This document shows positions 8,662-10,757 of a stretch of DNA of 24,000 bases, piece after piece (within the stretch, counting starts at the first letter, position 1; the number at the start of each line of letters is the position of its first letter). A program made the translations under genes and the position numbers. The stretch covers positions 5,552,268-5,576,267 of the forward strand of contig NZ_CP064923.1 of the NCBI RefSeq assembly GCF_018336915.1, in the 5' to 3' direction. The notes beneath the pieces are model-generated. The model made no database searches. It was not told where the DNA came from and saw only the letters and a list, made by a program, of their open reading frames with translations. Origin of the DNA: Acaryochloris marina S15 (GTDB lineage Bacteria > Cyanobacteriota > Cyanobacteriia > Thermosynechococcales > Thermosynechococcaceae).

Positions 8662-10089
8662 ATGGAAACGCAAACCGATTCCAATCCGAGCAACTTAGAT
8701 ATTCAATTCAATTTTTGGCAACAGTGGTATCCAGTCGCTCCCTTAGAAGACTTAGATCCACAGCGCCCCACTGCCATTACGTTATTAGGGCAACATTTTG
8801 TTATTTGGCAACCCAAGCATTCTGACCAATATCTAGTATTTCAAGATCTGTGCTCCCACCGCTTAGCTCCCCTCAGTGAAGGTCGCATTGACGAGCAAAC
8901 CGGTCAGCTCATGTGTAGCTATCACGGTTGGCAATTTGATCAAGAAGGTCTTTGCACCCACATTCCTCAAGCTGAAGCAGTCACCCCTAAGCAGGGACAG
9001 CTGTACTGCGTTACTGCTGTCCCCACTCAAGCGCAAAGTGGACTGTTGTGGGTATGGCCAGATCCAGACACCCGAGAAATTGCTGCCACACAACCTTTGC
9101 CTCTCTCCCCCCTCATTAATGCTGACCAAAACTTTGTCTGGTCCTCTGTCATGAGAGATTTGGCCTATGATTGGCAAACGTTAGTTGAAAACGTCTCTGA
9201 CCCGAGTCACGTTCCCTTTGCCCATCATGGTGTCCAAGGCAATCGCAACCAAGCCGCTCCTATCCCTATGGAGGTTCTGACCTCCACCCCAGAGCTAATT
9301 GAAGTCTTGACCACGGGGAAGTTCGCCACCACAATCACCTTTCAACCGCCCTGCCGCTTGGAATATCAATTTTCTATCGGTGAAGGGAAACAAGCAGCTA
9401 TGGTCACCTACTGTATTCCCATTGCCCCAGGTCGATCTCGCATCGTAGCCCTGTTTGCACGCAATTTTGCCACAGGTCTCATGAAAGTGCTTCCTCGCTG
9501 GGTAGAGCATATGAAAAACCGCAATCCAGTGCTGGATGGCGACATGATTTTGTTACGTGCCCAAGAAAAACAGCTTCTTCAGCACACCCAAACCCAAAAT
9601 TGGCAAACCGCCTACAAGCTCCCCACCAGTGCGGATCGTCTCGTGATTGAATATCGGCGATGGTTCGAAAAGTATAGTCACGGACAAATTCCTTGGGGAT
9701 CTGCTGATGGGCAGATTTTCGTTGCTTCCAACAACTATGACTATTTACAACCTCTAGGAGAGAAGCGACCTCAAATTCTGGATCGATATCATCAACACAC
9801 CTTGATCTGTAGTAGCTGTCGACGAGCGTTGAGCAGAATCAAGCTATTGCAAAAGATTTTGGTAGCTGTCTTTGCGATCGCAATCAGTGGAACAGCAATC
9901 TTGCCTGATTCTTTACTCCCTTCCCGCCATAAGATTGTGCATCTAAATATCATTGAAATTCTTATTTATCAAGAATCTGAATACCCAATCTTATGCTGGG
10001 ATGGGAGTAAGAGTGACGTGGGGGATTCCCATGGTTCTCATAGGGCTTCTAGGGTTAGGGATCTATTATGGGTTGAAATATTGGCTTAA
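8662..10089 (+). CDS. PaO/Tic55-family Rieske [2Fe-2S] non-haem-iron oxygenase; the C-terminus as sequenced is frame-disrupted
   Basis: It has the Rieske motif CSHRLAPLSEGRIDEQTGQLMCSYH, the mononuclear-iron motif ENVSDPSHVPFAHH and the family-typical C-terminal CSSC. The last roughly 50 aa of this frame look non-native. The expected C-terminal anchor is encoded in another frame ending at 10132. Confidence 0.85.
   Translation: METQTDSNPSNLDIQFNFWQQWYPVAPLEDLDPQRPTAITLLGQHFVIWQPKHSDQYLVFQDLCSHRLAPLSEGRIDEQTGQLMCSYHGWQFDQEGLCTHIPQAEAVTPKQGQLYCVTAVPTQAQSGLLWVWPDPDTREIAATQPLPLSPLINADQNFVWSSVMRDLAYDWQTLVENVSDPSHVPFAHHGVQGNRNQAAPIPMEVLTSTPELIEVLTTGKFATTITFQPPCRLEYQFSIGEGKQAAMVTYCIPIAPGRSRIVALFARNFATGLMKVLPRWVEHMKNRNPVLDGDMILLRAQEKQLLQHTQTQNWQTAYKLPTSADRLVIEYRRWFEKYSHGQIPWGSADGQIFVASNNYDYLQPLGEKRPQILDRYHQHTLICSSCRRALSRIKLLQKILVAVFAIAISGTAILPDSLLPSRHKIVHLNIIEILIYQESEYPILCWDGSKSDVGDSHGSHRASRVRDLLWVEILA
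9928..9995. repeat. AT-rich palindromic mini-insert (MITE-like) inside the Rieske oxygenase gene
   Basis: A perfect 10-bp terminal inverted repeat (CATAAGATTG at 9928-9937, CAATCTTATG at 9986-9995) encloses an inner palindrome ATTCTT/AAGAAT (9957-9976). By hand count 18 of 68 bases are G+C, far below the surrounding gene. Confidence 0.55.
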
Positions 10090-10132
10090 ACCCAGATTTT
10101 ATTTTGTGGATTATATCCATGCACATCACTGA
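9998..10132 (+). other. Displaced authentic 3' coding segment of the Rieske oxygenase gene (+1 frame)
   Basis: This frame reads GMGVRVTWGIPMVLIGLLGLGIYYGLKYWLKPRFYFVDYIHAHH*. That is a transmembrane helix plus the FYFVDY-type tail expected at the C-terminus of cyanobacterial PaO-family proteins. Confidence 0.65.
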
Positions 10133-10757
10133 TCAATCGATTTTTAGATAAAAGCCTTGGAAACACTCTGTCCATAAGTGTTTTCAAAGCTATTTTGTAC
10201 AACGTTACACCAACCGTTAGAGTTCAGTGAACGATAGAACCTGCCTACCCGTGAACTGAATTCCATCGACCTAACAACCAAAAGATACAGGTTTATGGCC
10301 AAGAGTTATTACCACAAAAAGTTTTACAAGATAAGAACCTTTATAGTTATTTCATTGATTCATATTAATTTATATGAAATATTACCGATTTCTTCGTGCA
10401 GATTTAATTTGGTAGTCTATTGACAACCAAATCTTCCAAAACTGGGTCTATTGTAACTTCCACAACATTTATGAGGAAGAAATTTCAGCCCTTTCATAAA
10501 TATATTCTTTAGATTAAAATCTTGACTAAAATGCAGAGTATTGCGAATGAGATCGCACGATCAGCTCAGCTGCCATAACGGGGATCAAATTCTTACAATC
10601 TTTACAAGGAAAAGCTTACAAGGATTATTATCGGTATTACAATTTATATGTAAAGAACTGTATTGAGTCCTAGCTATGTAAACCATGAGTATTAAGTATT
10701 TTTTCTTAGCCTGTTTGAGCTGAGTGGAAGGATATACTTCTAGAACAGAAACGCTTG

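Follow-up and report, generated by a model that had tools for sequence, protein, structure and literature searches.

A 92-nt miniature inverted-repeat element with IS630-family ends interrupts a PaO-family Rieske oxygenase gene in Acaryochloris marina S15

The window, a stretch of 24,000 nt from Acaryochloris marina S15 (contig NZ_CP064923.1, positions 5,552,268 to 5,576,267), carries on its forward strand an open reading frame of a PaO-family Rieske oxygenase at 8662-10089, which is given in the ORF list as a 475-aa protein. Pfam matches were obtained for Rieske (PF00355, 2.3e-22), PaO (PF08417, 2.6e-24) and VanA_C (PF19112), so the product has the Rieske [2Fe-2S] and PaO domains of the PaO/Tic55/LLS1-type Rieske non-haem oxygenases. 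In proteins of this type a C-terminal CxxC motif precedes two hydrophobic helices and a conserved tail, an arrangement that is incomplete in the present product. As an earlier note on this DNA had read from the letters, an insert comes after the CSSC motif and the first hydrophobic helix, both of which are kept in the 475-aa product, and the family-typical end is found downstream of the insert in the +1 frame; the ORF list and hydropathy bear out both points. This displaced native 3' end (10010-10132, forward strand) consists of 40 codons and a stop, terminates at 10132 and encodes ...GIPMVLIGLLGLGIYYGLKYWLKPRFYFVDYIHAHH, including the second hydrophobic helix and the conserved tail. It is recognisable by its match to the C-terminus of the homologue P0001, with which 38 of the 40 residues are identical. 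Hydropathy analysis found the second hydrophobic segment only in this +1 frame and not in the 475-aa product, which therefore lacks its last helix, as had been proposed. An alignment of 12 homologues from Acaryochloris, Nostocales (including Nostoc and Fischerella), Okeania, Limnoraphis and Leptolyngbya shows conservation of both the lost helix and the tail, LKYWLEPKFYFVDYIHA. Three further PaO-family paralogues are present in the same genome (G000), at 38-40% identity. A PaO-family paralogue on a plasmid-sized contig (C4:155492-156631) contains one in-frame TGA, possibly a sign that this family member is damaged too.

The original form of the gene was recovered from close relatives. A protein search returned P0001, a protein of 458 aa that is 98% identical to the window's product over the first 418 residues and ends in ...GTAILPDSLRVTWGIPMVLIGLLGLGIYYGLKYWLEPKFYFVDYIHAHH. 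It is encoded on a 55.9-kb Logan contig (L060) with the same neighbouring genes, and the DNA of this syntenic contig agrees with the window at every position over 53 nt to the left, and over at least 53 nt to the right, of a point at which exactly 94 nt are absent. The empty site in L060 reads GATTCTT followed by TAAGAGTG, with a single TA in TTAA, whereas the window reads GATTCT-T-TA-(92 nt)-TA-A-GAGTG. By the alignment of the two, the insertion therefore consists of a 92-nt element (9916-10007) and the extra copy of a duplicated TA. The left and right copies of this duplicated target lie at 9914-9915 and 10008-10009, both identified from the empty site GATTCTT-TA-AGAGTG and from the TA found on either side of the element when the site is filled. 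Gaps of exactly 94 nt were also found in the orthologues of G002 and G005 (about 90% protein identity) and of G001 and G006 (about 80%), which settles, in favour of an insertion, the question of whether orthologues carry the segment. The frame is shifted because 94 is 3n+1. Deletions of 97 or 100 nt would restore the frame as well, but the alignments show exactly 94 nt missing. The original protein had 458 aa and read ...AILPDSL/RVTWGIPMV...HAHH across the site, the slash marking the insertion; in the present product residues 1-418 are native and the last 57 derive from the transposon and then from sequence read in the wrong frame.

The element is a miniature inverted-repeat element (MITE) of 92 nt with 38% G+C and no coding capacity (9916-10007), delimited by the 94 nt, element plus one TA, that are missing at the empty sites. 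Its left terminal inverted repeat, CTCCCTTCCCGCCATAAGATTG (9916-9937, forward strand), matches the left ends of insertion sequences (ISs) in the genome, and its right repeat, CAATCTTATGCTGGGATGGGAG (9986-10007, forward strand), is complementary to the left one at 19 of 22 positions. The earlier note had singled out a smaller block of 68 nt (9928-9995), and its description of that block holds: the perfect 10-bp inverted termini CATAAGATTG...CAATCTTATG occur once in the window, where 100 shuffles gave an expectation of 0.00, the G+C content is 18/68, and an inner palindrome ATTCTT/AAGAAT lies at 9958-9963 and 9971-9976. What did not survive is the block as the unit of insertion. Copies elsewhere in the genome share a 98-nt unit with the same ends (9913-10010 here, made up of T, TA, the 92-nt MITE, TA and A), and the 10-bp repeats are therefore the perfect inner part of imperfect 22-bp repeats, counted with the flanking TTA/TAA left out. 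The 68-nt block thus comprises the inner 10 bp of each terminal repeat and a 48-nt AT-rich core. Likewise, the proposed deletion of 67 nt (9929-9995), joining the frames as ...LLPSRPGMGVRVTWG..., does not remove the whole transposon, 27 nt of which would stay behind in the gene, and its junction is seen in no relative; the original junction is ...PDSL/RVTWG.... The kind of event had thus been named correctly, a miniature inverted-repeat insertion rather than a single-base error, as the copies and empty sites show; its size, put at 67-68 nt, is in fact 94 nt. Folded as single-stranded DNA, the unit forms one long hairpin (-17.7 kcal/mol, z = -5.8).

To find further copies, the genome (7.1 Mb in seven contigs, 99% completeness) was searched with 9915-10010 as the query, and the copy flanks were compared by pairwise BLAST, which delimited the 98-nt shared unit. 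Six copies at 99-100% identity, the window's included, and one diverged copy at about 80% were obtained, so that the expectation of further copies was borne out five times over at near identity. The six main copies show no more than one base of difference, and all copies read TTACTCCCTTCCCGCCATAAGAT(T/C)G...CAATCTTATGCTGGGATGGGAGTAA in sites of the form T-TA...TA-A. One of the further copies lies at C1:4783637. Three of the six near-identical copies lie inside genes and three are intergenic, one of the latter between convergent genes, and either orientation occurs. Besides the oxygenase gene, a copy at C1:1729639-1729736 interrupts a 441-codon gene of a PapA_C/condensation-type acyltransferase, and another at C1:26867-26964 interrupts a 256-codon gene of a multi-pass membrane protein. 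Once 94 nt are taken out, long open frames of 470, 441 and 256 codons, respectively, reappear at the three in-gene copies. At the membrane-protein locus (C1:26867), the homologues in G002 and G005 lack exactly 94 nt, which provides a second empty site; at the acyltransferase locus (C1:1729639), an empty site was sought, and the interrupted gene had no DNA-level homologue in G002, G005, G001 or G006. The MITE was absent from both large Acaryochloris genomes searched, G002 and G005, and occurs once in each of two Acaryochloris MAGs (93% and 79% identity), the sole matches of a pattern scan of genome contigs. A scan of metagenome contigs with the MITE core pattern gave no match. The MITE therefore shows, under a size criterion of less than about 600 bp without coding capacity, the features by which such elements are recognised: it is short and non-coding, has terminal inverted repeats, is dispersed in several copies, is flanked by a target duplication with a matching empty site, and shares its ends with an IS.

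The ends point to a particular partner. The outer 14 nt of the MITE, TTACTCCCTTCCCG, also terminate two 1167-bp elements on the chromosome (C1:2148834-2150000 and C1:2167665-2168831), one truncated IS copy, and two plasmid IS copies that are interrupted by another insertion. Over the first 24 nt, TTA plus the left repeat, the MITE agrees at 24 of 24 positions with the left end of ISAcma32, an IS630-like element of A. marina MBIC11017 (plasmid pREB3), and at 23 of 24 with the left end of the genome's own 1167-bp IS, which in turn shares 82% identity along its entire length with elements annotated as ISAcma32 on plasmids of Acaryochloris marina. The product of the 1167-bp IS contains Pfam DDE_3 (7.5e-21) and HTH domains, and its two halves scored 101.4 and 99.6 bits against the IS630 transposase model NF033545, whose cut-off of 100 is set for the whole protein; together they cover model positions 1-297 of 299. 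The MITE is inserted at TA with a 2-bp TA duplication, as IS630/Tc1-mariner-mobilised elements are, and its partner encodes an IS630-family DDE transposase. When nine MITE copies and three distinct IS sites were considered together, with the two identically flanked plasmid IS copies counted as one, 11 of the 12 insertion sites had the context T-TA-A, which suggests, from these sites, a target preference for TTAA. A single-copy element of 112 nt at C1:370532-370643 has related ends, TTACTCCTATCCCG...CGGAAAGGGAGTAA, and an unrelated interior; it is possibly another MITE that transposases of the same group recognise.

The transposase gene of the partner has an unusual layout. None of the genome's partner-IS copies has a single uninterrupted transposase frame. 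In the chromosomal copies C1:2148834-2150000 and C1:2167665-2168831 the transposase is split between two frames that meet at an A8 run, GTAAAAAAAACTG, so that a +1 shift or the loss of one A in the mRNA is needed there. In ISAcma32 of A. marina MBIC11017 the frame changes at the corresponding position, where the run is A7 and follows GTT, and the two-frame layout common to both elements suggests, as far as sequence comparison goes, a conserved programmed slippage. The plasmid copies (C2:8061-11008 and C2:118270-121212) have A7, which gives a single frame, but are interrupted by the second insertion; a 549-residue open frame of that insertion, of which 534 aa were scanned, had no NCBIfam match. 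These two interrupted copies have identical flanks in opposite orientation, and their arrangement points to a putative large inverted duplication on the C2 plasmid.

Only the ends of the MITE relate it to the IS. A blastn comparison (word size 7) of the MITE core with the IS interior revealed no homology, the match being limited to the outer 24 nt; an origin of the MITE from the 1167-bp IS by internal deletion is therefore hypothetical. Compared with ISAcma32, the MITE has the same left end and the same T-TA...TA-A contexts, but lacks the transposase gene and everything else between the ends. It resembles IS630/Tc1-mariner-derived MITEs in being non-coding and 92 nt long, in having terminal repeats of roughly 22-24 bp in common with an IS630-family IS of the same genome, in the TA duplication, in its multiple near-identical copies, and in its presence or absence between relatives. 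It departs from them in that both of its ends resemble the IS left end, in its AT-rich core without detectable IS homology, and in its very low copy number, seven in the genome. Plant Stowaway elements are the eukaryotic counterpart of such IS630-mobilised bacterial MITEs. Among cyanobacteria, MITEs have been described as MaeMITEa-h in the IS-rich genome of Microcystis aeruginosa NIES-843, where they are implicated in mutation and rearrangement; compared by description, these differ from the present element in their length of 150-435 bp and in their 20-240 copies per family, and the paper names no parent IS families for them (PMC2779907). IS activity in the genus Acaryochloris is documented (PMC8763236). 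Among the papers searched, neither the 92-nt element nor any other Acaryochloris MITE was found described. The 92-nt element represents a small MITE family that is new, although elements of its kind are thoroughly known.

The mobilisation of a MITE by an IS630-family transposase has a biochemically studied model in ISY100 (ISTcSa) of Synechocystis PCC 6803, which moves by cut-and-paste. Its transposase alone excises and integrates the element in vitro, integration is almost always into TA, which is duplicated, and the 24-bp repeats are probably the sole requirement in cis, given that shortened elements retaining 30-bp ends transpose no less well than the complete one (PMC2170065). The MITE at 9916-10007 has the same cis features, terminal repeats and a TA duplication. 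ISY100 differs from it in sequence and has a single-frame transposase; the two are related by family only. By analogy with ISY100, the MITE is likely mobilised in trans by an ISAcma32-like transposase.

Taken together, the region 9916-10007 is very probably a non-autonomous MITE with the ends of an ISAcma32-like IS630 element, which was recently inserted in the oxygenase gene and shifted its tail out of frame. Direct observation covers the MITE and its further copies, the duplicated TA, the empty site, the IS with matching ends and the shifted frame. In the mechanism that we propose, the IS-encoded DDE transposase would bind the terminal repeats of the MITE, cut the element out and paste it into a TA dinucleotide, which would be duplicated, the target here having been the TA of TTAA. 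The insertion fell between codons 418 and 419 of the 458-codon oxygenase gene and added 94 nt (3n+1), and translation now passes through the MITE into the wrong frame and ends at 10089, leaving the native last 40 codons intact in the DNA but unread in the +1 frame. The MITE insertion is a recent, ordinary insertion mutation. As helix 2 and the conserved tail are missing, loss of function or mislocalisation is the expected outcome, and the 475-aa product is, judging from its sequence, probably non-functional or mislocalised.

The altered protein might instead be tolerated, or even work, as a one-helix Rieske oxygenase with a new tail of 57 residues. This reading is unlikely, although a serious one. 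The insertion leaves the Rieske, catalytic and PaO domains intact, as well as the CxxC motif and helix 1, and neither the MITE nor the remainder of the gene contains an in-frame stop. However, few stretches of the family's C-terminal region are as well conserved as the lost helix and the ...KYWLEPKFYFVDYIHA tail, and the new tail, being transposon plus out-of-frame sequence, has no homologue. The rest of the gene was considered as well. At codon 65 (8854-8856) the Rieske motif reads C-S-H in the window, against C-P-H in the other 11 of 11 aligned homologues, including the 98%-identical P0001. When the differences between the window and L060 were polarised with G002 and G005, the window's lineage showed five non-synonymous private changes, P65S being one of them, and one synonymous change, as against three and three in the sister lineage. 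This pattern in the window's lineage hints at a possible relaxation of constraint, in numbers too small for a test.

A further idea is that the MITE acts as a reversible switch, in which the slippage-dependent transposase would excise the MITE together with one TA from some copies of a polyploid chromosome and so restore the 458-codon gene, the three interrupted genes being toggled across the population; we regard this as very improbable. It is hardly any more probable, and if anything slightly less so, that the repeat serves the host as a structured element, such as a REP-like element, a terminator or a regulatory hairpin. The strong hairpin and the intergenic position of three of the six near-identical copies, one between convergent genes, would suit such a role, but no T-run follows the hairpin, the other three copies interrupt genes, presence and absence vary between close relatives together with the TA duplication, and the ends equal those of an IS630-family IS.

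An assembly or sequencing artefact, in which a repeat was misplaced or a simple indel introduced and the real gene is intact, is more doubtful still. Repeats can be misplaced and the MITE is one, yet it is far shorter than any length that would be a problem for reads, is embedded in unique sequence and shows the clean TA duplication at TTAA that marks the copies at unrelated loci, in an assembly of seven contigs with 99% completeness; with 94 nt between the flanks, a single-base indel is out of the question. Least credible of all, to the point of being negligible, is removal at the level of RNA or translation by an intron-like element, ribosomal bypass or programmed frameshift with the native protein still being made, for although taking out exactly 94 nt restores the frame and the MITE folds into a strong hairpin, no Rfam family was found in 9700-10300 (only a chance mir-5470 match of 19.9 bits against a gathering score of 98, E = 0.24), 94 nt are far below the size of any self-splicing intron, the relatives' DNA is without the element, and its IS-matching repeats, TA duplication and intergenic copies in either orientation are the features of a transposon.

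The insertion of a recently mobile MITE thus accounts for the locus, and several consequences follow for its annotation and for the organism. The gene should be read as interrupted by a mobile element, not as encoding a 475-aa protein. A MITE family is defined together with its likely mobilising IS and its target, the TA within TTAA. This genome has seen recent movement of non-autonomous elements, which interrupt at least three genes. To our knowledge, the function of a cyanobacterial PaO/LLS1-type oxygenase of the interrupted gene's kind has not been tested. The strain provides a natural C-terminal truncation of such an oxygenase, which can be compared with the intact gene of a close relative.
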